Positions 2,249-50,012 of a stretch of DNA of 64,000 nucleotides are shown here, piece by piece. Source of the stretch: an uncultured Acidobacteriota bacterium (GTDB lineage Bacteria > Acidobacteriota > UBA6911 > RPQK01 > JAPXNP01); assembly GCA_963777605.1 (NCBI GenBank), contig CAVZRV010000030.1, positions 1 through 64,000 of the forward strand, given 5' to 3'. The translations under genes and the position numbers were made by a program. The notes below the pieces were generated by a model. That model was not told the DNA's origin. It saw only the letters and a program-made list of their open reading frames with translations, and ran no database searches. How positions within the stretch are numbered: the first letter of the stretch is position 1; each line of letters begins with the position of its first letter.

Positions 2249-2374
2249 GGATCGAAGATCGAATCCGATCCGGCTGCAGCCCCTTTGAATGAGAGGCGGC
2301 GCAAGGTAGAACAGACGGAACTGTTCAAAGCGGAAAAGACTTTCAGCGACGGAACGTAACGAGGAGGCGCTGCG

Positions 2375-2632: not shown

Positions 2633-3789
2633 GCGCCAAGGTCCGATGGAGAGAGGATCGTCAGTACTGGGAGGTCCTGGTCCACCACAAGGGGCAGAGA
2701 TTCAAACAGCGTTGCGACAGCGAATCGGAAGCCTGGAAGGTGGCGGACCAGATCGCAGCCAGAATCAAGGCCCAGGGCGTCGAGGGCTTCGAAACGGCCC
2801 AGAACCGCAAGCGTGAGATCGTGCGGTTCGGGCCCTACGCCGACAAGTGGCTGTCGGAGATGCGCCAGTCGAAGCGAAAGCAGACCACGGTGGATCGATA
2901 CGATTGCTGCCTCCGGATTCACCTGAAGCCGGAGTTCGAGAACAACGCCCTGGAGTATCTGACCTACCGCAGGCTCAAGGCATTCTGCATCGAGAAGTCG
3001 GCCAACCTGTCGAGGGACAGCGTCCGGTTGATCATCGCCACCTTGAGGCTGATTTTGAAGGAGGCCCTGCGGGAGGGCATCATCCCGAACAACCCGGCGT
3101 CCGGGCTCGGCGAATTTTACGGGAAGGCGACCGAGGAAGAGGTGGACCCGTTCACGAAGGACGAACTGGGTTTGATTCTGGCGCATGCGAAGCAGACGGG
3201 ATATTTCGAGTTCATCCTGACGCTGGCGCGGACGGGAATGAGGTTCGGGGAGGCCCGGGCGTTGAGATGGCAGGACATCGACTTTCAGAAGGGCCGGATC
3301 CGCGTGGCCAGGAACTGGCCGGCAAACGGCCCGATGACGTCGCCGAAGACGTCGCGATCCCGGCGGGAGGTGGACATGACTCCGCAACTGGTCGCCGCAC
3401 TGAAGGCGCTCCGGTCGCGGAGAAAGGCCGACTACCTCTCCCGCGGGAAGACGGAGATTCCGGAATTCGTGTTCCTGTCACCCGGACGGAAGGTGAAGGG
3501 CGGAGGCCGCAAAGAGGGGACCCCGATCACTTATGCGAATTTTCGACACAAGTGCTGGGACCTTCTCTTCAAGAAAGCGGAGGTTCGACCGAGAGGGATT
3601 CATCACCTGAGACACACCTACGCGACCCAGATGCTCCTGTCGGGCGCGAATGTCTTCTACGTCTCGAGGCAGCTCGGCCACAGCAAGAACACGATGACCC
3701 TGGACACGTACACCCACTGGATCCAGGAGTCGAATGCCCGGGAAGTCGATCGGCTCGATGCGGAAATTCCGGAGGTTCAGGAAAAGTGA
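2629..3789 (+). CDS. int: Tyrosine recombinase / phage integrase
   Basis: TGMRFGE...LRW, PKT, HHLRHTYAT, LGH and TYTH catalytic motifs; GTG start overlaps the xis stop. Confidence 0.95.
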   Translation: MSAKVRWREDRQYWEVLVHHKGQRFKQRCDSESEAWKVADQIAARIKAQGVEGFETAQNRKREIVRFGPYADKWLSEMRQSKRKQTTVDRYDCCLRIHLKPEFENNALEYLTYRRLKAFCIEKSANLSRDSVRLIIATLRLILKEALREGIIPNNPASGLGEFYGKATEEEVDPFTKDELGLILAHAKQTGYFEFILTLARTGMRFGEARALRWQDIDFQKGRIRVARNWPANGPMTSPKTSRSRREVDMTPQLVAALKALRSRRKADYLSRGKTEIPEFVFLSPGRKVKGGGRKEGTPITYANFRHKCWDLLFKKAEVRPRGIHHLRHTYATQMLLSGANVFYVSRQLGHSKNTMTLDTYTHWIQESNAREVDRLDAEIPEVQEK

Positions 3790-20701: not shown

Positions 20702-20753
20702 CTGCGTAGTTATCACGGATATAGAGTCCTCAGAATCCGATTTCAATGCGGAT
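20702..20753. promoter_or_regulatory. Pair of (A)TSCG-N9-CGGAT sites, 33 bp apart, upstream of the cytochrome operon
   Basis: CTGCGTAGTTATCACGGAT (20702-20720) and ATCCGATTTCAATGCGGAT (20735-20753). Confidence 0.7.
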
Positions 20754-21015
20754 GCGCCCTTTCGCTCCGACCGGCACAATCAGTCACTAGCGATGGGGCG
20801 GTGACTTGCCGGCTCCCATCAGCGATGGGCATGTGCAACGAGGGCCCCAGGGGAGATCGAAAAATGAAACTCAACCTGAACCGAATCCGTTAGCGATCAC
20901 CTCCACTGTACCCGCCGATCTGCGGGTCCCACTGGCAGCGCCTCGCTGAAGTGACGCGCCTTGCCGCCCTCAGGCGGCCGGCTCGTTGAGCAAAGACCGA
21001 CAGGAGGATGAGGCC

Positions 21016-22198
21016 ATGGTTTACATCGATCAGAAACTGAGTTTCCTGATATCCCTCGCGGTGCTGTTGCTTTCCGCCTGCAGTGGAGTCGATGCGGATG
21101 GAAAACTTCCCGCGCCTCTCGATTCTGAGCCTGGACAGATGGTTCGCTCGGAGCGATGCGGCGAATGCCACAAGGACATTTACAGCGTCTGGAGTGGTTC
21201 GATTCATGCCCGGGCGGCATCGACTCCGGTCTTTCTCGAGGCTTATGACGACGCAGTCAAGCGGGCCGGTGACGAAGCCCGCCAACTTTGCCTGCAGTGT
21301 CATGCTCCCTCATCCGTGATCACCGGAAATCTGGTGCTCTCCGACTCGCTGAACCAGGAGGGGATCAACTGCGATTTCTGCCACTCCCTCGTTGGCGTTG
21401 AGCCGAAGAAGGAACCGAACCCCTTTGTTCTAAAGGTCGAAGGGGTCAAGTACGGTCCGGTCAAGGATGCTGTTTCGACGGGTCACCCCGTTGCCTACTC
21501 CGAGTTTCATACCACCTCCGAACTCTGTGCAGGATGCCATGAATACATCAATTCCGGAGGAGTCACGCTACTTTCGACTTACTCCGAGTGGAAGAGCTAT
21601 CTCAAATCCAGCGGTAACAAAAGCTGCCAGGAATGCCACATGCCCCTGGTCGTCGCGAGTGTTGCCGACCCGCGTGTTTCCCGGGTGCGCAACTCCTTTG
21701 TAAACCTCCACAGCATGCCGGGCGGACATTCGCTGGCCCAGTTGGTGAAGTCGCTCCGACTGCGGATTCTGGAGGTTGACCGCCAGAAAGACACGATTCA
21801 CGTCAAGGTCAGCGTGGATAACAAGGGAGCCGGACACATGGTCCCCACCGGGAGCCCGTCTCGAAAGGTGCTGCTGACCCTGACCGCAACCGCCGCCAAC
21901 GGCATGAGCGCCCGTCAGGAATACACCTTCCAGCGTGTCGTTGTCGATGCCGCCGGCAAACCCGATCGAAGAGGATTCGCGGTTGTTCCTGGAAGGAACC
22001 GCGGTCGAGTCGGACAACCGGTTGGCTCCGGACGAGGAACGGGTCATCGAAACGACTCTGTCCCTTCCTCCGGGAGACAACGTGGAGGTCCGGGCTGCCC
22101 TGACCTACCTCTATTCACCCCACAATCGACCCGAAACTGAGACCAGATTGGAGTTCTATTCAGAGCAAAAACGGCTGGTCACTTCGTGGACCCGCTAA
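21016..22198 (+). CDS. Pentaheme cytochrome c lipoprotein (c554-like domain; frameshift near 21960)
   Basis: Lipobox LSAC; CGECH, CLQCH, CDFCH, CAGCH, CQECH; AGH.VPTG. Confidence 0.9.
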
Positions 22199-22230
22199 AC
22201 CACAACTGCCAGCAGATTCAGGAGGATTCC

Positions 22231-22699
22231 GTGCAACAGGAAGTACCCGACCGGCGGCGCCGACGGCTGATCAATTGGTTCCTGGGGGGATCATTGTCAG
22301 GGTTGGTTGCCTCAATTTGCTATCCACTGGCCCGCTACCTCAGTCCCCCCTCTGTGCCCGAAGCGGCGACCGAACAGGTTGACGCAGGGAGCACAAATGA
22401 TCCGTCCCTCCTCGAGACAGGGATTCAAGATCGTTCGCTTCGGCGTCCAACCGGTCATCCTGATTCGGGTGGGGGACCAGGACTTTCGAGCCTTCTCCGC
22501 AACGTGTACCCATCTCGACTGCATTGTCGAGTACCAGTCGTCAGAAAAGCGCATCTGGTGCAATTGCCACAACGGCCAATACGATCTCACCGGACGCAAC
22601 GTCGCCGGGCCGCCACCCAGACCTCTTCGACCCTACACGGTCAACCTCGTGGCTAAAGGTCCTGGTCAACCTGAAAGCATCGTGATTTCGAAGGGATGA
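22231..22699 (+). CDS. Tat-exported Rieske [2Fe-2S] protein (frameshift near 22420)
   Basis: RRR signal/TM segment; CTHLDC, CNCH and GPPPRPL motifs. Confidence 0.92.
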
Positions 22700-23874
22700 G
22701 ACAGATGGGACTCACCGTTCAACCTCTTTACGACTGGCTCGAGGCGCGAGTTCCGATCAGCAAACTCGTCGAAGCCGCCGAGCACAAGACCGTTCCTCAA
22801 CACCGCTACACGCTCTGTTATTACGTTGGAGGAATGACCCTCTTCTTCTTCATCGTCCAGGTGATCACCGGGATCCTACTGATGCTCTACTATCGCCCCT
22901 CGGCCGGCGAAGCCTTCGAATCGGTCGAGTTCCTGATGACGACCGTTCCGTTCGGCTGGCTGATCCGATCGATTCACTCCTGGTCGGCCAACCTGATGAT
23001 CTTCTTCCTGTTCGTCCACCTGGCGACAGTCTATTTCATGAAGGCATACCGGCCGCCTCGGGAACTGACGTGGGTGACCGGGACGCTCCTGCTTTTTCTT
23101 GCAATGGCCTTCGGGTTTTCTGGTTACCTCCTTCCCTGGAACCAGTTGGCCTATTTTGCCACCAACGTGGGGACCGACATTGCTGGAGCGGTTCCAATTG
23201 TGGGTGAAACGCTGCTGAGGTTCCTGCGAGGTGGAGACCGGGTGACCGGAGGCACCCTGTCCCGGTTTTATGGATGGCATGTGGCCATCCTGCCGGCACT
23301 GACCACAGCCGTGCTGGGGATTCACCTGCTCTTCGTACAGGTTCAGGGAATGAGCGTCCCCCCGGGGGAATCTGAAAGGGCGAAGCGCCGGCACGGACTC
23401 AAGTTCATGCCGAACTTCCTCCTGCGCGATCTCTTTGGTTGGACGGTGGCTCTGGCCCTGCTGGCGACGCTGGCTGCCCTCTTTCCGTGGGAACTGGGGG
23501 ACAAGGCCAACCCGTTCGCCCCGGCTTTTGCCGACATCAAGCCGGAGTGGTACTTCATGTTCATGTTCGAGACGCTGAAGCTGGTCCCGGGGGGGGAGAT
23601 TCTCGGGGTTGAATACGAGGCCTTTCCGATCATGTTATTCGGTCTGTTCGGACTCATGATTCTCCTGGTTCCGTTCGTCGATCGGGGTGCGGATGAGGGG
23701 CGGCACAGTACGCTCTTTTCTGCGCTCGGATTAATCGTCCTGGTCTACGTTACCGGCTTTACAGCCTGGGGGTACCGGTCCTGGGTTCCAATCGTCATCA
23801 CTGTGGTGGTGGGAGTGCTGCTGTCCTTCCACGGGTTGCGAAACAGGGACAACGAGGGGAGGGACGGCAAATGA
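22696..23874 (+). CDS. Cytochrome b of a Rieske/cytochrome b complex (unsplit)
   Basis: [10 protein letters not shown]...H, SGYLLPW, RFYGWH...H and PEWY motifs. Confidence 0.95.
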
Positions 23875-25583
23875 GGTTGGGACAATTCAACTGGAAGACC
23901 GCTGCCTTGGTTGCGTTTGCGCTCACTGCTCCGGCGGTTGCGCAGGAGTCTACATCCTGTGAGACCTGCCATGCCAACCCGGATATGTTCGGAAGTGAGC
24001 AGATTGCAATCGTCGAAGGGTTTGGACATGACATTCACCGGGACGCCGGAATCTCCTGCCAGGATTGCCACGGCGGCAACCCCGATCCGGCGCTTGCGGA
24101 TGATCCGGCCGGAGCCATGGATCCCGATTTTCGGGCCAATCCCTATCACGGGGCCCCGAAGCGCACGGAGATCCCCGATTTTTGTGGAAGATGCCACTCC
24201 GACCCAGATTACATGAGGCAGTTTCGGCCTGATTTGCGGGTAGACCAGGTCCGGGAGTACTGGACCAGTCGTCACGGCATTGCCCTGAAGCAGGGTGACG
24301 AGAAGGTGGCCACCTGTGTTGATTGCCATGGGGTTCACGGAATCCGGTCCGCGTCCGACACCCTGTCCCGGGTGTTTCCGAAAAACGTGGCGGAAACCTG
24401 CGCCGCATGCCATTCCGACCCGGCTCGCATGGAGGGTTACAAACTCGACAACGGGCAGCCCCTGCCGACGAATCAGCTCGCTTTGTGGAAGGAAAGCGTC
24501 CATGCCAAGTCCATGATGGAGAAGCAGGACCTGTCGGCTCCGACCTGCAACGACTGTCACGGCAATCACGGTGCCGTTCCACCCGGAGTCGAAGCCATTT
24601 CCTATGTCTGTGGTCAGTGCCACGGCCGTGAGGCGACTCTGTTTCGGGCGAGCCCGAAGCTGGAAGGGTTTCGAACCCATGAGTCCTTCGCAGAGGACGG
24701 CCAGCCCCTCGACTGCCGGGGTTGCCACGATCTGCCTGCCGAGTTCGAGCAGATCGAGCCCGTCCACGCATTGACCGAGTGTTCCACCTGCCACGGAAAT
24801 CATGCGGTAGTGAGGCCGACCATTTCCATGTTGGGACCTCTCCCGGATACCCCGTGCGATTTCTGTCACGAGACGGCACCGAACGCCGATTCCGCGACGG
24901 CGGGACTCTCATCCGAGCGGCCGCAGGTGGTGAGCCAGACGCTTGGCAGTCTGCTTGAAACCGCCAGGCAGCAGGGCAAGACTGACGGAGACCTCTATGA
25001 CTGGCTTGTTCAGGAGACCCTCCTGCTGCCACCGCACACACTCGCAGGAGGCGGAGATGCCCGGCCCAAGCTTCGCCCCGAGTTCGCACGCCTCTTTGAG
25101 AAGCTGCGGATCGGGACGATGCACCGGCCGGGACCGGGCGGCGAATTGCTGCCGGGAGCGCCCTGGAGGGTGCGGTGCAACCAGTGCCACGATCCGAACT
25201 CCCCGGATAACGTGGGGACTCAGACAGCCTCGGCATTCGTCGACAAGTTCGGTCGCCTGTCCCGTGCGACGGCTGCGGCAGAGCGATCTTTGCTGAAGGC
25301 CAGACGAGGCGGAGTGGAGACGCGAGGAGCCCTGACCCAGATCGAAGCGGCGATCGAGGCCGACATACAGCTCCAGGTTCTGGTTCATACGTTTTCAGCG
25401 GACGAGTCGGGTGACTTTTCCAAGAAGTATGAGGAGGGAATGAAATCTGCAGATGCCGGACTGGATGAAGGGCGGTCGGCACTTGGGGAATTGAAGTCAC
25501 GCCGGCTGGGACTTCTCGTCTCGCTGGTCTTCATCGGCCTGACTCTGGTTGGGCTGTATGCCAAGATTCGCCAGTTAGGCTGA
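23871..25583 (+). CDS. Membrane-anchored undecaheme cytochrome c
   Basis: Signal peptide, 11 CxxCH motifs (CETCH through CNQCH), C-terminal TM helix. Confidence 0.92.
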
Positions 25584-25591
25584 TTCTTTTG

Positions 25592-25656
25592 CCGGAGCCC
25601 GGAGCCCGGAGCCCGGAGCCCGGACAAGGGTTTCTGGTTTCCGGTTTCCGGTTTCG
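25592..25656 (+). repeat. Heptamer arrays (CCGGAGC)x4 followed by (GGTTTCN)x4
   Basis: Begin 8 bp after the cytochrome operon stop; the two arrays are partly complementary. Confidence 0.85.
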
Positions 25657-25955
25657 GGGGTGTGTTACCGAGGTCGCTGTCGGAGGCGCATCGGACTCGT
25701 TTCACCGCGCCCGATCCGTCGGCGGGCACACGAAACCCCCGGGTAAAGCCTCCGGCGGGGGCCAAACCCCTAACCCCATGTATTAATAACGAACGTGTTG
25801 GAAAAAGTGCGAAAAAACCGCGGGAAGAAAGTGGAAAAATCCTGTTCACCCGGATGGGCAACGGTGCTTTTTGCGGTGGACATCCTCGAGAGGGTATTCT
25901 TTGGACCAGTGCAGTCCTTCTGATGAGTCGGGGTTTCCGATCGGTAGCTGTAGTA

Positions 25956-27461
25956 ATGAGTTTGAGGGAAACGCTTTCAAGCTTGGTGCAGAGCCTTCAT
26001 TTCAAGGTGGCTTCAGGTGTGATCGGTACTGTACTGGCGATTTCTGCACTCCATTTCGCCTGGGACTACCACTTCTACCGCACCAAGCTCATGGCTGAAC
26101 TGCGCCAGTCCTCGGAGAGCGTTTCCGACGTGACCCTCAACAGTCTCCTCGAGCTGGCGATGGTGGGACGGCATCCGGAATTGCTTCAGGGAGGGGTGGA
26201 ACGCCTCTCGAAGTCGTCCGACCTGGTCAGGACCATTCAGATCATCGACCTGACCGGGGTGATCCGGTTCTCCTCTGACCGGGCCCGGGTCGGTACGCGG
26301 GTCAGCCTCAAGGATCCGGGATGCGTGGCCTGCCACTCGGGAGACGCCGTACTTCCGCGGTCTGCCTTCATTCAGCAGGGAAACGAACAGTTGTTGCGTT
26401 ACGCCGCCCCCATCCCAAACCGACTCGGTTGCCATTCCTGCCATGACCCGGCCCAGCCCCTGGTCGGCATTCTGCTGGTTGACCACACGACGGGAGCCGC
26501 CCAGGAGAATCTGCGGGCCAGCCTCTACGAGATGGTCATCAAAGCCGGAACAACCGTCCTGGCGATCCTGATCGTGCTGGGAATCCTGATGAACAAAATT
26601 GTCATCTCCCGGATCAAGCGGCTGACCGCCGCGACCTCGCAGCTGACCTCCCATAATCCCGAGGCGCTCGATTTGCAGGCAGTGGAGGGAAGTGATGAAA
26701 TCGGGCAGCTCGCCCGCTCATTCCAGAAGATGGCCCGCGATCTCAGAACTTATGTGAACGAACTCGAGGAGAAGGAGCGGATTCGAGTGTCCTTGTTGCA
26801 GAGACTGGTCCGAAGCCAGGAGGAGGAACGCAAGACCATCTCGAGGGAGCTGCATGACCAGTTGGGCCAGTCTTTGTCGGCACTGCTGTTGGAGTTTCAG
26901 ACCCGCTTCTCGTCGGGAGACCTCAACAATAAGGCCTCGACGGGTGACTTCAGGGAATTTGAGGAGAGGATCCGAAAGTTGATCGAGGAAGTGCACCGCC
27001 TGGCCTGGCAGATGCGTCCGTCGATCCTGGATGACTACGGGCTGGACCGGGCCGTTGAACGCTATGTGGAGGAAACCTCGAAGTCTTCGGGAGTTTTAAT
27101 CGATTTTCAGCAGATCACGGCAGACGGGCTGGACCGATTGCCGCACTGGATAGAGACGACCCTCTATCGCGTCGCCCAGGAAGGTGTTGCCAACGTGGTC
27201 CGCCACTCGGAGGCGACCCAGGCCAGCGTGCTTCTGATCCGCAAGCGAACGAACGTCACTCTGCTGGTAGAAGATAACGGCGTCGGGTTTGACCCGCGCA
27301 GTGTTGAGCCGACCAGTGCGCGGGGACTGGGCCTGCTCGGGATGAAAGAACGGGTAACAGAATGCGGGGGGAAGCTCGAGGTTGAATCGGCTCCGTTGAA
27401 AGGCACGACGATCCGCGTGCAGATCCCGCTGGGACAAGGTCTGAAATGGCAATCCGTCTGA
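25956..27461 (+). CDS. Sensor histidine kinase with a di-heme periplasmic domain, HAMP, HisKA_3 and HATPase
   Basis: Two TMs flanking CVACH and CHSCH; DEIGQLA, EERK.ISRELHD, DNGVGF and GLGLLGM. Confidence 0.92.
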   Translation: MSLRETLSSLVQSLHFKVASGVIGTVLAISALHFAWDYHFYRTKLMAELRQSSESVSDVTLNSLLELAMVGRHPELLQGGVERLSKSSDLVRTIQIIDLTGVIRFSSDRARVGTRVSLKDPGCVACHSGDAVLPRSAFIQQGNEQLLRYAAPIPNRLGCHSCHDPAQPLVGILLVDHTTGAAQENLRASLYEMVIKAGTTVLAILIVLGILMNKIVISRIKRLTAATSQLTSHNPEALDLQAVEGSDEIGQLARSFQKMARDLRTYVNELEEKERIRVSLLQRLVRSQEEERKTISRELHDQLGQSLSALLLEFQTRFSSGDLNNKASTGDFREFEERIRKLIEEVHRLAWQMRPSILDDYGLDRAVERYVEETSKSSGVLIDFQQITADGLDRLPHWIETTLYRVAQEGVANVVRHSEATQASVLLIRKRTNVTLLVEDNGVGFDPRSVEPTSARGLGLLGMKERVTECGGKLEVESAPLKGTTIRVQIPLGQGLKWQSV

Positions 27462-28096
27462 TTATTGCCGACGATCACGCAATGTTTCGCAGTGGCCTGC
27501 GGGCTCTGCTCGAGAAGGAGAGTGATTTCGAAATCCTCGCCGAAACCGGAAACGGCTTCGACACGCTCCGTGCCGTGTCCGGGTCCGAGGTTGACGTTCT
27601 CCTGCTCGACCTGAGCATGCCCGGCCTGCCCGGGTCGAGGGTTGCCGAGAGCGTACTCGAAGAGAGACCTCACCTTCCGATTGTCATCCTCACGATGCAC
27701 GAGGACGAGTACTACCTGCGCGAACTGCTCAAGATCGGCGTGCGAAGCTTCGTCCTCAAGAAATCGACGGGAAGCGACCTGGTGAAGGCGATTCGGGCTG
27801 CCTACCGGGGAGAGAGCTATGTCGATCCGTCCCTGGGCGGGAAACTCCTCTCGGCCCTATGCGATCCCAATCCGAGGAACTCGGGACACCGGGTGGGCGT
27901 TTTGACCCCGCGCGAGCAGGAGGTCTGCACCCTGCTTGCATTTGGCCACACCAACGCCGAGATTGCCGAGAAGCTGTGTATCTCCGAGCGGACCGTTGAG
28001 AGTCACCGCAACAACATCACGACAAAGCTGGGCCTCAAGAGCCGCGCAGAACTGGTGCGGTTTGCCATTGACAACGGCCTTCTCAAAATCGAATAG
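27446..28096 (+). CDS. NarL/LuxR-family response regulator
   Basis: ADDH, LLDLSMP, LTPREQEV and IAEKL.IS.RTVESHR motifs. Confidence 0.95.
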   Translation: MAIRLIIADDHAMFRSGLRALLEKESDFEILAETGNGFDTLRAVSGSEVDVLLLDLSMPGLPGSRVAESVLEERPHLPIVILTMHEDEYYLRELLKIGVRSFVLKKSTGSDLVKAIRAAYRGESYVDPSLGGKLLSALCDPNPRNSGHRVGVLTPREQEVCTLLAFGHTNAEIAEKLCISERTVESHRNNITTKLGLKSRAELVRFAIDNGLLKIE

Positions 28097-28105
28097 CAGT
28101 CCCTT

Positions 28106-28157
28106 ATCCGTAGTTTTTCCGGATTCCTGATTGGCGAAATGCGGTTTTTCAGCGGAT
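28106..28157. promoter_or_regulatory. Pair of ATSCG-N9-CGGAT sites, 33 bp apart, upstream of the CRTAC1/Hzs-like operon
   Basis: ATCCGTAGTTTTTCCGGAT (28106-28124) and ATGCGGTTTTTCAGCGGAT (28139-28157). Confidence 0.7.
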
Positions 28158-28220
28158 GCGCCACCCACCCCGGCCACCGGATACTTTTCCCAGTAACAAA
28201 GCCTCATCAATTGAAGGGAA

Positions 28221-29954
28221 TTGGGCCGGGTGTTGAATCCAGCAAAACCACAAGTCCGACTATTCATCTGGCTGTCTTTCGTGATTCTTCTGGCCGGTGT
28301 CCTGTTGAGCGCCGGCTGCTCCTCCGGTACGACCGGTGAAATGAGAGTCTCCGCTGATCGAGGTGCACTTCCTCTTGAGCAGGAGGCCCACAATCAGGCC
28401 GGCGTGATCCTGACCGACGTCACCGTACCCGCCGGGATCAGCTTCCGCCACTCCTACGGAGACCAGCAGTTCAGTAACCTCATCGAAGCGGCAGGTGGCG
28501 GAGTTGCCTTCCTGGATTACGATCAGGACGGCTGGCTCGATCTCTACCTGGCCAGCGGAAAGTTCTATCCCGGTCTGAGCAGCGGGGAGGAGCCCCGGAA
28601 CCAGAACTTGAACCGGCTTTATCGGAACCGCGGGGACGGAACCTTCGAAGACGTTACGGAAAAAGCGGGAGTAGGACTCCCTGATTCCTACAGCATGGGC
28701 CTCGCGGTTGCCGACTTCAATAACGACGGTTTCCCGGATATCTTCATCTGCGGATACCGCCACAGCACTCTGCTCGAGAACCGGCGGGACGGAACCTTCG
28801 CCGACGTGACGTCAACGGCCGGGGTAGCCAATACCGACCTGACTTCGATCGCAGCCACCTGGCTCGACTACGACCGGGACGGCCTGCTCGATCTTTACGT
28901 CAGCAGCTACATCGCCTTTGACCCCAACTACAACCAGTACTACTCGCCGGACGGCTTCCCTGGTCCGCTCGCATACCAGGGACAGCCGGACCGGCTTTTC
29001 CGAAACCTGGGCTCGGGGAGATTTCGGGACGTCAGCGCCGAGGTCGGCCTTTCCGACTTGAAGGGCCGGGGAATGAGCGTTATCTCGGCCGATTACGACC
29101 TGGACGGCTATCCCGATCTCTACGTCACTAACGATGCCACCGAGAACTTTCTGCTGCACAACGAAGGGGGGACCCATTTCTCCCAGCGTTCCGAAGATGC
29201 CGGAGTTGGCTACAACGGGATGGGCGATTCGACGGCCAGCATGGGGGCCGACCTGGGCGATTACGACCGCGACGGGCGCCTCGACCTCTTCGTATCGGAC
29301 AACTCGATCGGGTCGCTCTACCGGAACGAAGGAGACGGGCTTTTCATGGACCAGGTCGTCGAGTCAGGGATCGCCATGCGTAGCGCCCAGTACGTGGGCT
29401 GGGGCTCCTTCTTCTTCGACCTGGACAACGACGGCGACCTGGACATTTTCAAAACCAACAGCGACCTTTCCCGGCTATTCGGACAGGAGGACCAGGTCTT
29501 CCTGAACGACGGCAAGGGCGGTTTTCGGGACGTTGCCTCGGAAATGGGCGACTATTTCGGTCAGACTCTCCTCGGGCGCGGCGCGGCTTACGCTGACTAC
29601 GACAATGACGGCGACCTGGACGTGGTCGTCTCCAACATTGGGGGCCCCGCCGTGTTGCTCAGAAACGATGGGGGCAACCGGAAGAACTGGCTGGGCCTGG
29701 TTCTTCGAGGTAGGACCAGTAATCGTGACGGGACCGGCGCCGTGGTCCGCATCAGTGTCGGCGGAAGCAGAATGGTGCTCTTCAAGAAAACCTCGAGTGG
29801 TTACCTCTCCTGCAGCGACCCCCGGCTGCACGTCGGACTCGATGATGCCGGCCAGGTGGACGAGATTGAAATTGCCTGGCCTTCGGGAAGGAAACAGCTC
29901 TTGAAGGATGTGAATGCTAACCAGATTCTCACCGTCGAAGAGCCCGAGGCGTAG
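28221..29954 (+). CDS. CRTAC1-family lipoprotein (FG-GAP repeats plus ASPIC/UnbV domain)
   Basis: Lipobox SAGC; repeated DYDxDGxLDL; C-terminal GYLS..DPRLHVGL...WPSG. Confidence 0.92.
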   Translation: MGRVLNPAKPQVRLFIWLSFVILLAGVLLSAGCSSGTTGEMRVSADRGALPLEQEAHNQAGVILTDVTVPAGISFRHSYGDQQFSNLIEAAGGGVAFLDYDQDGWLDLYLASGKFYPGLSSGEEPRNQNLNRLYRNRGDGTFEDVTEKAGVGLPDSYSMGLAVADFNNDGFPDIFICGYRHSTLLENRRDGTFADVTSTAGVANTDLTSIAATWLDYDRDGLLDLYVSSYIAFDPNYNQYYSPDGFPGPLAYQGQPDRLFRNLGSGRFRDVSAEVGLSDLKGRGMSVISADYDLDGYPDLYVTNDATENFLLHNEGGTHFSQRSEDAGVGYNGMGDSTASMGADLGDYDRDGRLDLFVSDNSIGSLYRNEGDGLFMDQVVESGIAMRSAQYVGWGSFFFDLDNDGDLDIFKTNSDLSRLFGQEDQVFLNDGKGGFRDVASEMGDYFGQTLLGRGAAYADYDNDGDLDVVVSNIGGPAVLLRNDGGNRKNWLGLVLRGRTSNRDGTGAVVRISVGGSRMVLFKKTSSGYLSCSDPRLHVGLDDAGQVDEIEIAWPSGRKQLLKDVNANQILTVEEPEA

Positions 29955-29961
29955 GCGAGTC

Positions 29962-31134
29962 GTGCTGCGTCCAAGGGTGCTTCAGATCGTCGTGCTACTG
30001 GGTGTCGTCGCGGGAGCCGGTGTCCTGGCCTCCTTGCGATCCTCTGCTCCGGCTCAGGTCGTTTACCTGGCCTGTGCCTCCGTTCCCCAGGAAATGCCGC
30101 TGCTCTATCCCGCCGGCACGCGCCTCGTCCGATTTGCTCGAGGATCGGTGGAGCCGTTTGCCGACCTGGAACTGGTCAGTCCACCTCACGTCTCTTACGA
30201 CGGGTTCCGGGTCATCTTCTCGGCCCGCCGAACCGGAGAGGACTACGCCCAGCTCTGGGAGGCTGATGCAGAAGGGGAACTACTCGGCAGGCGGACAAAC
30301 GAATCGGCTGACTGCGTGACCCCAGATTACCTTCCGGACGGCCGGATCGTGTTCACTCGCCTCTCGGAGCGATTGGAACACGGGACGTCGAAAGGCGAGG
30401 TCTTCGTGCTCGAGCAGTCGGGAGAGACCCACCGGATCAGCTTTGGGAGTTCGCTGGATCTGGTCGATCATGTCCTGGAGGACGGCCGGGTCCTGGTCCG
30501 TCGAGTGACTGCGCAGAATCCCGAGGGACTTGAACTCGCCCTCCGTCCGGACGGAACCGAGATGGAACGTTACCTGGGAACGAAGTCCCCGGAAGCAACG
30601 ATTGCGCGTCTTGCCAGAGAGACGGAAAAAGTCCTGGCGGTCGGAGATTCAATTGCTCTCAATTCACCCGGAAAATACGAGGTACGGACGGTTGTTCCCA
30701 TGGATCCCCGTAGTCGTCCCCCGGTCGCGACCTCGGTTGTCAACGAGGCAATGGACCACGGCTGGCTTCTCTGCCTCGACGTCCGGCAGACCGACCTGAC
30801 GATTGACCTTGCCCGGGCCCATTCCGCCCGGATCGTGGGCGCCGAAACCGGAATGCCGCTCGCGGAAACACCGATCGAGTCGGACGGGTCATTCTTTGTC
30901 GAGGTGCCGTCGGACCATTTGTTCAAAGTCGAGGTTCTGGATGACCAGGGAGAGGTTCTGGTCCGCCAGGGAGAGGGTATCTGGGTCCGGCCCAACGAGC
31001 ACCGGGGCTGCATCGGCTGTCACGAGCCCCGCTACCTCTCACCACGAAACCGGATGCCCCTGGCTCTTCAGAAGCACTCCTCCGATCCCATCGCCCCGCA
31101 GGTAATCTCGCAGCGACTTCGGGAGGGGAAGTGA
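29962..31134 (+). CDS. Hydrazine synthase alpha-like protein (TolB-like propeller plus HZS-alpha middle domain, one heme)
   Basis: SYDG.RVIFS and PDYLPDGRIVF blades; DGSFFVEVPSD...LDDQG...WVRPNEHRGCIGCHEPRY. Confidence 0.8.
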   Translation: MLRPRVLQIVVLLGVVAGAGVLASLRSSAPAQVVYLACASVPQEMPLLYPAGTRLVRFARGSVEPFADLELVSPPHVSYDGFRVIFSARRTGEDYAQLWEADAEGELLGRRTNESADCVTPDYLPDGRIVFTRLSERLEHGTSKGEVFVLEQSGETHRISFGSSLDLVDHVLEDGRVLVRRVTAQNPEGLELALRPDGTEMERYLGTKSPEATIARLARETEKVLAVGDSIALNSPGKYEVRTVVPMDPRSRPPVATSVVNEAMDHGWLLCLDVRQTDLTIDLARAHSARIVGAETGMPLAETPIESDGSFFVEVPSDHLFKVEVLDDQGEVLVRQGEGIWVRPNEHRGCIGCHEPRYLSPRNRMPLALQKHSSDPIAPQVISQRLREGK

Positions 31135-33097
31135 TGAACCGCCGAATCCGAATCCTGCTGGTTGCGTCGCTGTCATCGCTGATCGGCTGCGTTTTTGTCG
31201 TCTACGCCACGTACCAGCACGTCGGCTACTACACGGGGCACGCGCCCAAGACCTACGACTGCTTTTCCTGCCACGTGGAGGGTCGAGGGTTGGACCCTCT
31301 CGACCTGATTGCCGACTCGGACTACATCAGTCCGTTGAACCTTGCGGTCAGCCCCGACGGGAAGCGGCTTTATGCGACGGGACAGGACGGAGACCAGTTG
31401 GTGGAAGTCGACCTGGCCAGGAAAGAGGTCTCCGCCCGCATCCCGGTAGGCCGGCACCCGTTTGGAGTGACCCTTTCCCGGGACGGAAGGAAAGCTTTTG
31501 TTTCCAATGAATTTTCCGATTCCATCTCAGTTGTCGATTTGCCCGGTCGGGTGGTTCTCAAGTCGATTCCTACTGGAGACCGGCCCAGCGGCCTGGATTT
31601 GACTCCCGATGGAAAGACGCTCTACGTCGCTAACTGGCAGGGGGACACCCTTTCCGCGATCGATCTCGAGACCGGCGCGGTTGAGGTCGACCTGGCCGGC
31701 GGGGGCAGCCCGAACGACGTCGTGATTGTTCCGGGCGGCCGGCAGCTCGTTGCCACCAACGAACTTTCCTACGTCGAGTCCCTGAGGCAGCAGCCGCGGA
31801 CTGAGGTCACCCTGGTCGATTTGCAGGCGCGAAGGATCCTACGGCGCATCGTTCTCCAGGACGCGCACCTGCTCGAAGGGGTGACCGTCCTCCCGGAAGG
31901 TGACCTCGCGCTGGTAACGCTGGTCAAGCCGAAGAACCTGCTCCCAGTCATCCACGTCGAGCGGGGCTGGACCATGAGCAGTGGTGTCGGCGTCATCGAC
32001 CTGCGCACGGGGCGGACCTATCAATTCTTGCTGGACGAGGTGAACCGGTACTTTGCCGATCCCTTCGACATCGTCACGAGCCCCGACGGAAAACGGGCTT
32101 TCGTCAGCCACTCCGGAGTCGATCGCGTCAGTGTGATCGATCTGCAGGCACTCCGCCGACTGGTTGACCAGGTTGTCGCCGGGCGGTTGAGCGAGTCCGA
32201 ACTCCGACTCGATCTGAGTTCCCAGTTCGTGGTGAAGCGTATCGAAACGGCCAGCAACCCAAAGGGCCTGGCGGTTTCACCGGACGGACGGACACTTTTC
32301 GTGGCGGAACGGCTTTCCGACTCCATCCTTGCCGTTGACCTGGACACCCTGGAACCGGCTTACCGGGTCGATCTGGGAGGTCCGGCTCACGAAACGGCGG
32401 TACGGAGGGGCGAAAAACTGTTCAATAGTGCGGCGCGCACGTTTCAGGGGCAGTTCAGTTGCCGGAGTTGCCATCCCCGCAACCACACCGACCGGCTCCA
32501 GTACGACTTCGAACCGGATGGCCTCGGGGAGAACATCGTTGACAACCGTTCTTTGACCGGGATTCGCTATACCGCCCCGTACAAGTGGAACGGCAAGAAC
32601 ACGAGCCTCTTCATGCAGTGCGGAATCCGGTTCTCTCGGATCCTGACCCGGGTCGATTCCTTCAGCGGTGACGAACTGAGCGCGCTCGTGGCCTACATCC
32701 GCTCATTGCCGGTGCCGCCGAATCCCCGGTCTCACGAGGATCCTTCCAAGGTTCCCGCGTTGGAGCGGGGCCGTCACTTTTTCGATCGGACCCATACCAA
32801 AACCGGTGAGTTGATATCCGGAGTCGAACCGATGCATCACCTGCCACCCAGCCCCGCTTTACACCAATCGGAAGAGCGCCGACGTGGGCAGTGCATCGCC
32901 GGGCGATTCGGGCACGGGTTTTCGACACGCCCCATCTCAATAACATTTTTGCGACGGCTCCCTACCTCCATGACGGGAAGGCTCGGACCCTGGAGGAGAT
33001 CTGGACCGTCTACAACGGAAACGACACTCACGGATACACCCGGGACATGTCCAACAGGGATCTCAACGACCTGATTGAGTATCTGAAAACGTTCTGA
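31131..33097 (+). CDS. YVTN/YncE beta-propeller fused to a di-heme CCP/MauG-like domain (HzsB-HzsC-like), with an extra N-terminal heme; frameshifts near 32818 and 32920
   Basis: CFSCH; repeated SPDGK.LYV blades; CRSCH, TAPYKWNG, CITCH (32833-32847, intermediate frame), DTPHL...APYLHDG...DTHG...DLIEYL. Confidence 0.82.
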
Positions 33098-33107
33098 GGA
33101 CAAGAAA

Positions 33108-34347
33108 GTGAAAGAAAAAAGCCTGGTTTTGCTGCTGCTCTTCTCCTCGGTAGCTGCCGCCGTACTGGCGAGCCGGCTCCCTCGAGAAACGACCGTGATT
33201 GCGGAGCATCCGGCCGAACCAGTTCCCTACGCCGGGACAACCCCGGAGCCGAGTTTGTCCGATCACCCGAACCACGATGACCTCGGTGGCCTGTCACCCC
33301 TCCCCCTGGCCACCGAATGGACCAATTTCACGGTTCGGGACGGGCTGCCGTCGAATAAGGTTTTCTCTATCCGGATCGACGGCGATCGGGTCTGGGCCGG
33401 CACCGACCAGGGCCTGGCTTGCTACGAGTCGGGCCGTTGGACGGTTATCGGCGTCAAGGACGGCCTGCCGCACCAGGCCGTCCTGAGCGTCGATGTCAGC
33501 CCTCAGACCGGAGATTTGTGGGTTGGTACCATGGGAGGGCTGGCCCGGATTACGGGGGGCCGAATTGACGTCTTCACCCAGACCAGCAGCGGTCTGTCCA
33601 ACAATTTCGTCAACGAAGTGCAGTGTGACCCGGAAGAAAACGTCGTTTGGGCTGCCACCGCGATGGGCCTGTCCCGTTATGACGTGACGTCCAATACGTG
33701 GCAGGTCTACACCCACGAGAACACGCCGATGCACGAACCCTGGACTTACTCGGTGGCGGTCGATCGAGGGATGGTCTACGTCGGAGCCTGGGGAGCCGGA
33801 ATCCTCGAGTACACCAAGGCGAACGGTCGCTGGAGGGAATACCGGGACCCGGACGGGGAGATGGAAATCGACCTGCTGCCCAACGACGGACCGGTTCACG
33901 ATGTTACTTCGGCAGTCGATTTCGCCGGGGGAGTTTTGTGGCAGGGATCTTACATGGGGATGGCGTCCTACAACGGCAGTGAGTGGCGCAGCTACTACAA
34001 GGAAGACAGCGGCCTTCCCAGCAATTTCGTCAACTTCGTTCGTGCCAGGGGCCGGGTAGCCTGGGTCTGTACCGACTCGGGATTGAGCGTGACCGATTCG
34101 GAGCGCTGGCTGACTTATCGAAAGAGCGGTGCGGGCGGAGAAATCGCGTTCAGCCGTTCAGGGGAGGTCATCCGGAAACCAGCGCATCGGGTCGGTGTTC
34201 CCGCACAACTTCGTGTTGAGTGCGGATGTTCATGGTGACTCGGTCTGGCTGGCCACTGAAGGCGGGGTCAGCCGGGGTCACATCACCGGGACCTGGGACA
34301 CGGCGGAGTCGATGAATGCGGAGAGCGTGGCGAGGAGGGAAGAGTGA
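33108..34347 (+). CDS. Secreted Reg_prop-type beta-propeller protein (frameshift near 34178)
   Basis: Signal peptide; repeated DGLPSN.V...W.GT..GL blades. Confidence 0.85.
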
Positions 34348-35711
34348 TTCGAACACGGCTGATTCTCGGATTGATCTTCTGCCTCGCCGCCGCCACCGCA
34401 GCGGCACCTCCGGCTGAAAAGAACAAAGACCGCGCCCGCTATGCCAACCGTCCCGACAGCCTGGTGCCCTATGCGCGGGCGGCAGTCTACAAGGACACAT
34501 ACGCACAGCCTCCGGAATTCAAGGGGGCCGGGCGAGAGATCCCCGACCCGAAAGTCGATGTGGTCAAGATTGGCTTAATCGGTCCGCTGACCGAAGAAGA
34601 CGAGCCCAAGGTTCCTCCCGGGTTTCGTCCAGGAGTCAACCCGGGCCCGAAAGCGCTTTTCGGCCATCACATGCTGTTGGGCGCGCAAGTCGCGATCGAC
34701 TTTGCCAACCGCAACGGCGGTTACCATGGCAAGAGGTTCGAATTGGTCAAACGGACCGACCTGGTTCAGTGGGGACAGACCAGTGACGAACTGGCCAAGT
34801 TCGCTTTCGAAGACCGGGTCTGGGCGGTGATCTCGGGCATGGACAGCAACAGCAACCACGTGTTGAACCGGGCCACACTCAAGGCCGAAGTTCCCCTGCT
34901 CAACGCCGGGTCAACGGACCCGACCTTGACCGAGCACAACATCCCGTGGCTGGTGCGCTGCATCAACGACGACCGTCTCAACAGTTACGAACTCTTGAAT
35001 TACATTCACCGGGTTCGCAAATTCACCCGGATCGCGGTCCTGCGCGTCAACGACCGGGACGGGCGAGTCGGCGTCGCCGAGTTCATGAAAGGCGCCCGGC
35101 GGCTGGGAACTCCGGTGCTCCTCGAATTGAGGTTTCAAAACGGCGACCAGGATTTCAGGCCTCAGCTCAAGCAGATCCGGGCGCTCCAGCCGGAAGTGAT
35201 CGCCCTGTGGGCCAATCCGCCCGAAGGGGCGCTGATCATGAAGCAGGCAAGGGAACTGGGAATGACCCAACAGTTCGTCGGGTTTGACCGGCTCTCCCAC
35301 CCGACCTTCCTCAAGGAGGTCGGTGCAGCAGGTGACGGGATGGTGGTGGCCGCCACCTTCGATCCCGAAAGCCGAAGCCCGGAATGGCTGGAGTTCGAAC
35401 GGGCTTATCGAGATCGTTACGGAGAGGAGCCCGATGCCTTCGCGGTGCACGGCTACGACGGGGTCCGCCTGGTGATCTCCGCAATCCGCCGGGCCGGTCT
35501 CAACCGGGCCCGAATCCGGGATGCCCTCTATGCCACCACTACGTTCCCCGGGGCCAGCGGTACGATTCGTTTTGACACCACCATGAACGACATAAGCCGG
35601 CCCTGGCTGGCCACCGTCAAGGGCGGCACCCTGAAGTATTTTCAGCCGGAAGACTGGCCGCGGAACGAGCACTTCCCGGTCGTCGTGAGTTCCACGGAGA
35701 GTCGTCGATGA
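34344..35711 (+). CDS. LivJ/LivK-like periplasmic binding protein
   Basis: Signal peptide; VKIGLIGP, N..GG..GK, DF.PQL..I, GYDG and G.SG.I.FD motifs. Confidence 0.88.
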   Translation: MIRTRLILGLIFCLAAATAAAPPAEKNKDRARYANRPDSLVPYARAAVYKDTYAQPPEFKGAGREIPDPKVDVVKIGLIGPLTEEDEPKVPPGFRPGVNPGPKALFGHHMLLGAQVAIDFANRNGGYHGKRFELVKRTDLVQWGQTSDELAKFAFEDRVWAVISGMDSNSNHVLNRATLKAEVPLLNAGSTDPTLTEHNIPWLVRCINDDRLNSYELLNYIHRVRKFTRIAVLRVNDRDGRVGVAEFMKGARRLGTPVLLELRFQNGDQDFRPQLKQIRALQPEVIALWANPPEGALIMKQARELGMTQQFVGFDRLSHPTFLKEVGAAGDGMVVAATFDPESRSPEWLEFERAYRDRYGEEPDAFAVHGYDGVRLVISAIRRAGLNRARIRDALYATTTFPGASGTIRFDTTMNDISRPWLATVKGGTLKYFQPEDWPRNEHFPVVVSSTESRR

Positions 35712-36355
35712 GACTTGGCCTCGGGTTATCACTTGTCACGATCCTTCTCTCCCCGGCGCTTGCGGGAGTAGGGGATCAGCCAAATGAGCCGACGGCCAGA
35801 ATCGGTGTTCTCGTGGCCGGCTCTGATTCCGATCAGGCGGTGGATGACGCGATTCTCTCGGGCGTCAGGATGGCGGCGGCGGAATGGGACCGGGAGCATC
35901 CAGATCAGTCGGGCAGTGTTCAGGTAGTCCCAATCCGGGCCAATACCCGGTGGGATTCCCAGACTTCCGACATCGTCAGGGCTATCTTCGACCACCGACT
36001 CGCAATCGTGATTGGTGCTCCCAACCGCCGAACCGCTCACCTGGCGGCCCAGGTCGTCACGCGGTTAAAAGGGTCTGCTCTCCTGATCGCAATCACTGAG
36101 GATGAGACGCTGACTCAGGCCGGCGTGCCCTGGCTCATGCGGATGTGGGTGGAATCCTCGTTGGCGCAGGCATCCGGAGCGCGGAGCGCGGCGCCGTACG
36201 AAGTTTTGGCCCGGGATGCCGGGCGCGCCGTATTGGAAGCAATCGCGGCCAGTGGTTACGGGGCATCCGGAATTCGCGAGTACTTGGCGGGACACCGATT
36301 TTCCAGCAGACTAGGGACCTTCACGTTCAACCAGTCTGGCGAACGAGTGCAGTAG
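35708..36355 (+). CDS. Short single-lobe LivJ-like periplasmic protein
   Basis: Signal peptide; RIGVL...G...A and GTFTFNQSGER; ATGA-coupled to the previous gene. Confidence 0.65.
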   Translation: MRLGLGLSLVTILLSPALAGVGDQPNEPTARIGVLVAGSDSDQAVDDAILSGVRMAAAEWDREHPDQSGSVQVVPIRANTRWDSQTSDIVRAIFDHRLAIVIGAPNRRTAHLAAQVVTRLKGSALLIAITEDETLTQAGVPWLMRMWVESSLAQASGARSAAPYEVLARDAGRAVLEAIAASGYGASGIREYLAGHRFSSRLGTFTFNQSGERVQ

Positions 36356-46305: not shown

Positions 46306-48639
<2,334 letters not shown>

Positions 48640-48671
48640 TTCATCCCGCTAGTCGAATTCGTAGAGGAAGA

Positions 48672-50012
48672 ATGATGACGAGAATTGCTATGTGGAACGT
48701 GTTCTTGGGCCTCCTGCTGCTGCTCACTGCAGCCGGGTGCTCTTCGCAGAGCGGGCCGACAGCCAAGGCCGAGGCCCAGGAATTTCGCCAGGCCATGCAA
48801 TCGTATCAGCAGAGCAAGGACCCTGCAGAGAAACTCCGCTTGGCCACCGACTTCCTGGACAAGTACCCCGACAGTCCATATACGGTCCAAGTGGTCGATG
48901 CGGTAACCCGTGACTACTATGGTACCGCCGTGACTGACCCAAAAGGGGCGGTCGCGTTTGCCCAGTCCAGGCTGGCCGGGTTGTCCGATCAGCGCCAAAT
49001 TGAGGCGGGACGCCTGGTTCTCCTGCGGTTGTACGGAAAGGCGGGCATGGGAGAGTCAATCGCGGCTCTGGCGGACAAACTGGGTTCGAAGGCGAGCCTC
49101 TCCGACCGGACGGCGATCGTTGATGGAGCGGTGGCAGCCGGTGACTGGGGCCTGGTGGAAAGAGAGGCTCAAGTCACCCTCGATCTCCTTTCCCCCGATT
49201 ATCTCAAGAACAGGTCGGGAGGCGAGGAACTGAACGAAGCCCAGATTGATTTCGAACTCCGGATGCAGAAGGCCGACCTTTATCGGTATCTCGGAGAGGC
49301 CCGTTTTCGCCAGGGTGCCGTCGGTGACGCTCTCAAGGATTTCGAGTCGGCTAACCAGGACGAGATTCGTAATTTCGTGGGTCTTGGCTTTACTTCGCTG
49401 GACGAAATGTGGGGAGAGGCCTTGATCGCTTCGGGAGAGAACCAGAAGGCGATGGACGTGCTGGAGCGTCCCGCCCTGATCGGACGCAACGAGGAGGCAC
49501 TCGGGCTGTTTAGAAAGGCGTATCTTGCGACCGGGCATCCCGAAAAGGAGTTCGATCGATTTTGTGCCGACCGGCGAGTCCAGGTGGCGCCGGAGATGCC
49601 AGGCTTTCAGGCTCTGGATTACAGCGGAAAGGAATTCACCTACGAGCCGGGCAACGGAAAGGTCACCTTCCTGGCCTTCTGGTTCCCGACATGAGGGGGA
49701 TGCCGCGTGGAGTTGCCACGCCTCCAGTCGCTTTACGAGAAGTTTCGGGATCGTGGTGTCGAGTTTATCGCCGTGGAAGCGGTGCGCGACACTGAAGGAG
49801 CAGAAGAGTTCATCGAGAAGAACGGCCTGAGTTATCGCTTCCTGGAGAACGGAGAAGGAAAGAGGGAGATCGTGCGCTCATTGTTCCATGTCCGGGTGTT
49901 CCCGACGTCGCTGTTGATTGACCAGAAGGGCCGGGTGGTCAGCTGCCATATCGACTACAGTGAGGGCGACGACGCCCGCTTTGAATCTGAGATCCTAAAC
50001 CTCCTGAGTTGA
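48672..50012 (+). CDS. TPR-like/TlpA-type redoxin lipoprotein; probable selenoprotein (UGA at 49692-49694 read as Sec, motif UGGC)
   Basis: Lipobox AAGC; ...[21 protein letters not shown]...FPTSLLID continues in frame; hairpin just 3' of the UGA. Confidence 0.85.
49705..49721 (+). other. Putative bacterial SECIS hairpin GCGTGG-AGTTG-CCACGC
   Basis: Perfect 6-bp stem starting 11 nt after the UGA, with a G-containing loop. Confidence 0.7.

Follow-up and report, generated by a model that had tools for sequence, protein, structure and literature searches.

The 64,000-nucleotide stretch analysed here (hereafter the window; positions 1 to 64,000 of the forward strand of contig CAVZRV010000030.1, assembly GCA_963777605.1, from an uncultured Acidobacteriota bacterium) contains a gene cluster whose two central products, an HzsA-like (alpha) protein and a fused HzsB/HzsC-like (beta-gamma) protein, are by sequence comparison true but distant relatives of the hydrazine synthase (HZS) of anaerobic ammonium-oxidizing (anammox) bacteria. 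The cluster probably does not encode an anammox-type hydrazine synthase. We hold, with moderate confidence, that the core at 28221-36355 is an HZS-homologue cluster that works, together with a Rieske/multiheme/sensor operon at 20986-28096 seen only in this lineage, as the redox system proposed below. For a long time, hydrazine synthase was regarded as an enzyme on its own; relatives are now known, and we know of none with a known function.

Related loci were collected by a pattern scan of one genome per species, which gave at least 599 candidate stretches. The best 80 loci were analysed as genome loci (L001-L080), and 80 metagenome loci (L086-L165), all of the gene order in which an FG-GAP gene comes first, bring the set to 160. 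L001 and L002 are from the two closest genomes, and these two loci together with L003 provide the orthologues used for most comparisons.

The alpha-like gene (29914-31134) is the open reading frame (ORF) in which a preliminary description of this DNA had noticed a propeller and a heme motif, and both are found there. Its 406-residue product consists of an N-terminal helix, a TolB-like propeller and a middle domain that matches the HZS_alpha profile (PF18582; E 1.1e-14, score 55.2 bits, cut-off 26.6). The C-terminal part reads DGSFFVEVPSD...WVRPNEHRGCIGCHEPRY; the sole CxxCH motif is CIGCH at residue 366, EPRY comes next, and the chain ends 36 residues after the CxxCH. With this one CxxCH only, the protein lacks the C-terminal bis-His heme domain of HZS (heme alpha-II), as the earlier description had also stated. 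The best sequence match in the PDB is chain A of the Kuenenia stuttgartiensis HZS (5c2v_A, E 5.2e-5 by phmmer). The AlphaFold model (predicted local distance difference test, pLDDT, 86.7; predicted template modelling score, pTM, 0.83) has the same chain as its top Foldseek match (E 5e-15; query-normalized template modelling score, TMq, 0.67), followed by TolB (TMq 0.32). The structure models contain no heme.

For the beta-gamma protein (31131-33097) the listed ORF, 31131-33074, has a garbled tail, and the true reading requires two frame changes and ends at 33097. In comparison with L001, L002 and L003, the breaks are single-base insertions near 32817 and 32905. Once these are repaired, the motifs listed in the preliminary description are all present: an N-terminal CFSCH (residue 44), CRSCH (residue 444), CITCH, APYLHDG and DTHG. 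Intact orthologues have 653-658 residues and three CxxCH motifs. The first 556 residues, which include an N-terminal helix and a YVTN propeller, match 5c2v_B best (E 2.3e-45, chain residues 10-346 of 352) and 5c2v_C at E 1e-10. The intact gamma part of L003 matches 5c2v_C at E 4.1e-27, with MbnH at E 2.5e-7 and di-heme peroxidases below that. The claimed homology to HZS is thus borne out by the HZS_alpha profile and by chains A, B and C of 5C2V as best PDB matches. The gamma part also belongs to a broader family, as had been anticipated: the intact L003 orthologue passes the CCP_MauG profile (PF03150) with 36.3 bits against a cut-off of 25.6, and the truncated frame of the window stays below it at 19.2 bits.

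The fold points in the same direction. The L003 beta-gamma model (pLDDT 84.5, pTM 0.87) has 5c2v_B as its top match (E 2.8e-33; target-normalized score, TMt, 0.91; root-mean-square deviation 2.0). The seven-bladed propeller and the loop insertion in blade 6 of 5c2v_B are both matched, including a PKN.LPV motif, and the PVCEAENG of the beta loop corresponds to PVIHVERG here, so that one of the two Glu residues, candidates for the Mg-binding Glu of that loop, is kept.

At the hemes, resemblance to the anammox enzyme is uneven. Phmmer aligns CIGCHEPRY of the alpha-like protein to CSGCHYGSY of 5c2v_A without a gap, and the Tyr four residues after the motif His (H+4) falls on Tyr591. In the anammox enzyme, this Tyr is the proximal ligand of heme alpha-I and the motif His binds zinc. 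The preliminary description had given weight to this Tyr, and its presence and alignment stand; as a family trait it does not, for it occurs in the window, L002 and L003 only (2 of the 80 genome loci), with other residues in 78 of 80. L001, the closest locus, and P0006 have Phe instead, and the Tyr is replaced in most of 120 homologues. Family-wide, the alpha motif is C[IV]GCHE in the FG-GAP-first gene order and CHAGPE in the other order. The alpha heme is probably an ordinary His-ligated one in most of the family.

In the gamma part, residue numbers are based on the alignment of the gamma-I CxxCH, which gives an offset of 39. The cysteine of an MQC motif, which had been named as the candidate for the third heme cysteine of HZS, indeed aligns with chain residue 126, that is gamma-Cys165. 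It is present in 68 of the 69 intact beta-gamma genes from the 80 genome loci of both gene orders, and a KW motif is present in 65 of them. The position of gamma-His144 is taken by the Trp of YKWNG, which is invariant in alignment A4. Gamma-Asp168 aligns with Phe, an assignment that is less certain because it lies beside an alignment gap. The number of CxxCH motifs per intact beta-gamma protein follows the gene order: all 15 proteins of the FG-GAP-first order have three, and all 51 of the other order have two.

The two proteins are also predicted to form a complex, as the preliminary description had supposed. The L003 alpha/beta-gamma pair reached interaction prediction scores from aligned errors (ipSAE) of 0.74, 0.75 and 0.77, in contrast to 0.00 for the best of three controls; in a benchmark, 58 of 80 solved complexes attained that mark, as did 2 of 110 mismatched pairs. 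At least 85% of contacts are common to the runs, with a partner pLDDT of at least 79. The confident interface brings together the blade-6 loop of beta-gamma (residues 265-279) and parts of the gamma-I region (435-438, 464-465 and 501-509) with alpha residues 372-391, which lie directly after the CxxCH motif. The predicted models thus suggest that an HZS-type alpha/beta-gamma interface is kept.

Despite these similarities, the sequences are far from those of the characterized enzyme. The window alpha scores 27.6 bits against the cut-off of 800 of the NCBIfam equivalog hydrazine_alpha, and the L001 beta-gamma orthologue scores 221 against 1250 (BC), 174 against 560 (beta) and 93.7 against 625 (gamma). 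A gene for an octaheme of the hydroxylamine oxidoreductase/hydrazine dehydrogenase (HAO/HDH) type was not found in the genome, which is 96.7% complete; the only PF13447 match is one of 23 bits inside the second beta-gamma gene of the genome (see below). This, and the Acidobacteriota metagenome-assembled genomes (MAGs) that are its nearest relatives, agree with the non-anammox host that had been assumed. With Kuenenia HZS (5C2V) the cluster shares an alpha protein with propeller and heme middle domain, a beta propeller of seven blades that has a blade-6 loop, a di-heme CCP-like gamma domain (CCP, cytochrome c peroxidase) and a third cysteine near the first gamma heme, and by both sequence and fold every part finds its best match among the chains of that structure. 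In contrast to the Kuenenia enzyme, identity in the fold alignments is only 13-27%, heme alpha-II is missing, the H+4 Tyr is not conserved in the family and Trp replaces His144; beta and gamma are fused, with alpha preceding beta-gamma, and beta-gamma carries an extra N-terminal heme. We take the missed equivalogs, the rarity of the Tyr, the replacement of His144 by Trp, the lack of heme alpha-II and the failure to find HAO/HDH in the genome as the grounds on which this is probably no hydrazine synthase.

Homologues of this kind have been described before. Hagglund et al. (2025; PMC12758564) report, in the text considered here, that homologues of alpha and of fused beta-gamma are encoded together in bacteria other than anammox ones, and distinguish four clades. 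In their clade III, an FG-GAP gene lies upstream of an alpha gene whose product is shortened by the last ~100 residues and has no heme alpha-II; a single additional heme motif is present in beta-gamma, and two genes for binding proteins follow downstream. The window has the same succession of FG-GAP, alpha, fused beta-gamma and two binding-protein genes, a short alpha with heme alpha-I only, the extra beta-gamma heme motif and a Trp at the His144 position, so that by described architecture the core cluster fits clade III in every feature. The high novelty assumed in the preliminary description therefore does not hold, as the architecture is already in print. The same paper found that key residues were not conserved and concluded that the homologues do not make hydrazine. 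On two points our data differ from its text. A two-residue alignment gap at Tyr591/Ser590 is stated there for all homologues, whereas phmmer aligned the motif of the window gap-free with Tyr at H+4, although in the nearest relatives only; and the third cysteine, which is described there as a trait of HZS at the gamma-I heme and reported for clade I, is found here in genes of both orders. The main text of PMC12758564 contains no occurrence of Rieske, DAHP, RidA or Acidobacteriota. The additions of the present analysis are the Reg_prop gene, the adjacency of the Rieske/cytochrome b genes and the scale of occurrence in Acidobacteriota.

Earlier, Dalcin Martins et al. (2023; PMC10732223) had proposed, in the part of that paper drawn on here, that HZS-like enzymes are a broad family whose members act on other substrates. 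The hzs-like genes of their Phycisphaerae and KSB1 MAGs resemble the window in having an hzsA-like gene directly upstream of a fused hzsBC-like gene in non-Brocadiales hosts. The likeness is by description; those MAGs are from other phyla, and the Phycisphaerae MAGs carry hao and further anammox-associated genes that the genome of the window lacks.

The genes from 28221 to 36355 overlap or abut throughout, as had been noted, and the two HZS-like genes are embedded among four others on the same strand. Upstream of alpha lies a gene for an FG-GAP/ASPIC-UnbV (CRTAC1-like) secreted propeller protein (28221-29954, +; PF13517 174.5 bits, PF07593 62.3 bits). Beta-gamma is followed by a gene for a secreted Reg_prop (two-component regulator propeller) protein (33108-34347, +), one for a type I periplasmic binding protein of the branched-chain amino-acid-binding family (34344-35711, +; PF13458 160 bits) and a second, shorter binding-protein-like gene (35708-36355, +) that has no Pfam match at E 0.001 and is 42% identical to its L001 orthologue. 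The best PDB matches of the first binding protein are branched-chain amino-acid-binding proteins (3td9, E 2.8e-29). Literature on CRTAC1, ASPIC and UnbV in connection with cytochrome c peroxidase yielded no functional lead.

The core genes recur in the 160 loci, mostly of Acidobacteriota, when searched with the window proteins by tblastn, and at least 532 of the 599 listed candidate stretches encode alpha relatives. Among the conserved periplasmic heme systems of this phylum, the cluster is thus a common one. Named Acidobacteriota lineages account for 73 of the 80 best loci, the other seven being from Gemmatimonadota (2), Marinimicrobia, Binatia, Desulfurellales, Cyclobacteriaceae and Rhodothermaceae. 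Gene order among the 80 genome loci is FG-GAP, alpha, beta-gamma in 18 and alpha, FG-GAP, beta-gamma in 57; five are cut or otherwise arranged. The FG-GAP gene adjoins alpha in nearly all surveyed loci, and Reg_prop follows beta-gamma in most. In five loci (L007, L009, L010, L014 and L015) Reg_prop and the first binding protein form a single ORF of 811-886 residues, which suggests that the two act jointly. A metagenome scan for a near-identical contig gave only relatives of at most 55% identity.

Clustering of the remaining ORFs revealed two further recurrent neighbours, a RidA-like gene (PF01042) in 96 of the 160 loci and a gene resembling 3-deoxy-D-arabino-heptulosonate-7-phosphate (DAHP) synthase (PF00793) in 92. 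The commonest order, found in 33 loci, is DAHP synthase, alpha, FG-GAP, beta-gamma, Reg_prop, RidA, binding protein. The clusters of the window, L001, L002 and L003 lack both the RidA-like and the DAHP-synthase-like gene. A 384-residue L001 gene considered as DAHP-synthase-like was ruled out, as Pfam identifies its product as a GGDEF protein.

The same genome has a second, intact cluster of ~11 kb on contig C13 (L085; ~75768-86719, minus strand), in the order RidA-like, alpha (659 residues), FG-GAP (545 residues), beta-gamma (1050 residues), Reg_prop and two binding proteins. Its beta-gamma protein has ten CxxCH motifs and two c554 domains, and this cluster is of the clade I type, as that clade is described in the text of PMC12758564.

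Upstream of the core, the window carries a redox and sensor module, so that twelve tightly packed genes occupy 20986-36355 of the plus strand. The module begins with a pentaheme c-type cytochrome (20986-22198, +; Cytochrome_C554-like, PF13435 43.5 bits, five CxxCH), a Rieske iron-sulfur subunit with a PetC-type anchor (22186-22699, +; TM_PetC 38.1 bits, with CTHLDC...CNCHNG in another frame) and an intact cytochrome b with a b6-like N part and a subunit-IV-like C part (22696-23874, +; PF00033 177 bits, PF00032 25.8 bits). An intact multiheme cytochrome c with 11 CxxCH motifs and a C-terminal membrane helix (23871-25583, +) follows. Next comes a histidine kinase, a candidate periplasmic di-heme sensor (25956-27461, +; Pfam HAMP, HisKA_3 and HATPase_c), whose start is, from the alignment to L001, probably at 25956 and not at 25662. 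Its CVACH and CHSCH motifs sit between two hydrophobic helices, and the L001 and L002 orthologues also have two CxxCH motifs. The last gene of the module encodes a NarL/LuxR-type response regulator (27446-28096, +; Response_reg and GerE). The intact L001 Rieske orthologue matches PF00355 with 50.9 bits, and the cytochrome b is 80% identical to its L001 orthologue. The order of the module upstream of the cluster is the same in L001 and L002; L003 has no upstream flank.

In its parts, the module is similar to b6f-type and Geobacter ExtP systems, with a PetC-type Rieske protein, a b6-like cytochrome b and multiheme c-type cytochromes. Unlike in those systems, the Rieske gene is frame-broken here and all scores remain under the curated NCBIfam cut-offs, the best being cytochrome b6 at 235 bits (cut-off 325), ExtP at 217 (290) and, for the L001 pentaheme orthologue, ExtKL at 79.8 (250). 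The genome has three cytochrome b loci, so that the cytochrome b of the module is accessory. The C13 beta-gamma protein carries c554-type heme domains at its N-terminus; in the window, a separate c554-type pentaheme lies beside the Rieske gene, and its direct similarity to the C13 domains is weak (E 9e-6). The accessory nature of the cytochrome b, the heme-motif kinase placed between the two operons and the c554 domains fused to the C13 beta-gamma protein lead us to favour a functional link between module and core.

Our proposal for the whole is as follows. The HzsA-like and the fused HzsB/C-like proteins would be exported and each held at the membrane by its N-terminal helix. They are predicted to form an HZS-type heterocomplex, in which the blade-6 loop and the gamma-I heme domain pack on the stretch after the alpha CxxCH. 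Judging by the conserved residues, electrons may pass from the extra N-terminal heme of beta-gamma to gamma-II and, via the conserved Trp, to the three-cysteine gamma-I-like heme, where a small oxidant would be reduced. The alpha heme, probably His-ligated, could serve a second step or act as an electron relay. In this lineage, as the gene adjacency suggests, electrons would most likely come from quinol through the Rieske/cytochrome b proteins and the c554-type multihemes, with the heme sensor in control. The substrate at the gamma site might be, in order of likelihood, a peroxide or an N-oxide (nitric oxide, NO, or hydroxylamine), and an amino-acid-like or amine compound handled by Reg_prop and the binding proteins might be a co-substrate or a signal. 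The RidA-like and DAHP-synthase-like genes of other loci likewise point to an amino-acid-like partner.

Several points weigh against this proposal. Among loci with more than 5 kb of upstream sequence, the Rieske/cytochrome b module stands beside the cluster in only 2 of 64 from genomes and in none of 16 from metagenomes, so that the expected conservation of the cluster holds for the core and fails for the module. An unrelated HpcH aldolase gene upstream appears, judged by eye from the first residues of the L001 ORF, to be syntenic with L001 too; if so, the adjacency of the module may reflect shared descent and not function. The RidA-like and DAHP-synthase-like genes are left unexplained by the proposed model, and 4 of the 12 genes of the window are frame-broken. 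The complex score may be a memory of the 5C2V complex; as that complex is already solved, the prediction shows likeness and not that the proteins bind. Functions suggested for every non-anammox member derive from comparison. Finally, most carrier lineages are largely aerobic soil bacteria, and for these a peroxide-based or oxidative chemistry is no less plausible than the reduction of an N-oxide.

This last point leads to the alternative that beta-gamma is a peroxide-dependent enzyme of the CCP/MauG type whose likeness to HZS is due to common ancestry only; H2O2 would be detoxified, or used to oxidize or cross-link a partner (alpha or the FG-GAP protein) or a bound small molecule. Besides the mostly aerobic carriers, the CCP_MauG match of the intact orthologue, the C-terminal pair of CxxCH motifs with APYLHDG, and MbnH and di-heme peroxidases as the next PDB matches of the gamma part agree with it, as does the Trp between the hemes, a feature reported for CCP and MauG in the text of PMC12758564. 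We nevertheless regard this alternative as unlikely, if still worth serious attention, since nothing else matches any part nearly as well as the HZS chains do (for gamma, E 4e-27 versus 2.5e-7 for MbnH). The propeller fusion and a heme-bearing alpha partner with a conserved predicted interface are foreign to known CCP/MauG systems, and the third cysteine at the first heme is the HZS trait of PMC12758564. The retained architecture, predicted interface and third cysteine could also be read as those of a functioning hydrazine synthase outside anammox, or of a different enzyme there that forms N-N bonds: the gamma-I-like heme would produce NO or hydroxylamine, and a Tyr-ligated alpha heme would condense the product with ammonium or an amine. 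The H+4 Tyr of the window, L002 and L003 and the amino-acid/amine-type binding proteins would suit such an enzyme, and so would the adjoining quinol-linked module, given that a Rieske/cytochrome b (R/b) complex and electron transfer module (ETM) genes are listed among anammox-associated genes (PMC10732223, in the part drawn on here). We give this reading hardly any credence in view of the missed equivalog cut-offs, a Tyr that is absent from 78 of 80 loci and exchanged for Phe in L001 and P0006, Trp for gamma-His144 and Phe aligned with gamma-Asp168, the lack of heme alpha-II, the HAO/HDH-type octaheme not found in the genome and the unconserved key residues noted in PMC12758564. Very improbable, too, is a quinol-fed, membrane-tethered HZS-type enzyme of soil Acidobacteriota that would reduce NO or hydroxylamine at its three-cysteine heme and couple this step to a reaction with an amine or amino acid at the alpha heme. 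If true, it would mean N-N or N-oxide chemistry outside anammox with the amine or amino acid delivered by Reg_prop and the binding-protein pair, and the Tyr-bearing sub-lineage (window, L002 and L003), which has its own Rieske/cytochrome b and heme-sensor module, would stand nearest to the anammox enzyme.

A different kind of alternative concerns the state of this copy. The two frameshifts reported earlier in beta-gamma were confirmed, and three more had been missed, in the pentaheme (~21963), Rieske (~22422) and Reg_prop (~34160-34180) genes. The pentaheme break is visible in the DNA alignment and in the L001 comparison, where tblastn yields two pieces. Relative to L001 and L002 there are thus five single-base insertions in ~13.4 kb, affecting 4 of 12 genes. 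This copy may be non-functional, and the cluster and its Rieske/cytochrome b neighbour could be decaying pseudogenes, with the function carried by the intact C13 cluster; we rate this a little short of an even chance. No breaks were seen in ~20 kb of control genes (rpoB, rpoC, dnaE, carB and two uvrA genes), in the Tex, BipA, IlvB and IlvN genes of the window or in the C13 cluster, and such an uneven spread speaks for real decay. Synteny with L001, moreover, stops directly after the second binding-protein gene. Assembly error, on the other hand, is favoured by the nature of the breaks. All five are single-base insertions outside long homopolymers, a pattern that would be unusual in naturally decaying genes; in-frame stops and deletions are absent, and past the breaks the segments are 77-91% identical to their orthologues. 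Frame problems are also not limited to the cluster, as two frames share the orthologue of an OPT oligopeptide transporter (C31 436431-438327; 80-84% identical to L001), and two TGA codons lie within the match of a second dnaE-like gene (C8 297542-300475). Several MAG loci of the same assembly series have broken beta-gamma genes as well. In the MAG loci L021, L022, L041, L054, L072 and L079 the gene is split into two ORFs, as it is in the window. Between assembly error and real decay the probabilities appear about equal. By an ORF-length statistic, the genome is not distinguishable from other loci. Of the candidate breaks nominated by a codon-usage frame map, none of those checked by Pfam was a frameshift.

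The proposed redox system matters mainly beyond this copy: with the gene frame-broken and the architecture in print, the window adds little on its own. What it does draw attention to is a sub-lineage with a dedicated-looking quinol-oxidizing module and heme sensor. Together with the RidA-like and DAHP-synthase-like genes found elsewhere, the module offers handles on the substrate of a widespread soil enzyme and on the evolution of HZS.

Some minor features of the window remain. A scan for promoters and terminators gave nothing above chance, with one promoter-like hit against 3.3 expected and nine terminator-like hits against 15.4 expected. A mobile element may have its border at 2360-3786 (+), ~17 kb upstream of the cluster, where a phage-type integrase gene begins within an HTH_17 (excisionase-like) ORF. 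Downstream, at 48555-50012 (+), a 379-codon frame is followed by a 105-codon Redoxin/thioredoxin-like frame, with a single in-frame TGA (49692-49694) between them in the context FWFPT-TGA-GGC. A 6-bp hairpin begins ~13 nt after this TGA, and its fold energy is no better than that of shuffled sequences (z 0.35). The TGA presumably occupies the place of the fold's first active-site cysteine, and the product of 48555-50012 may be a selenocysteine (UxxC) protein.

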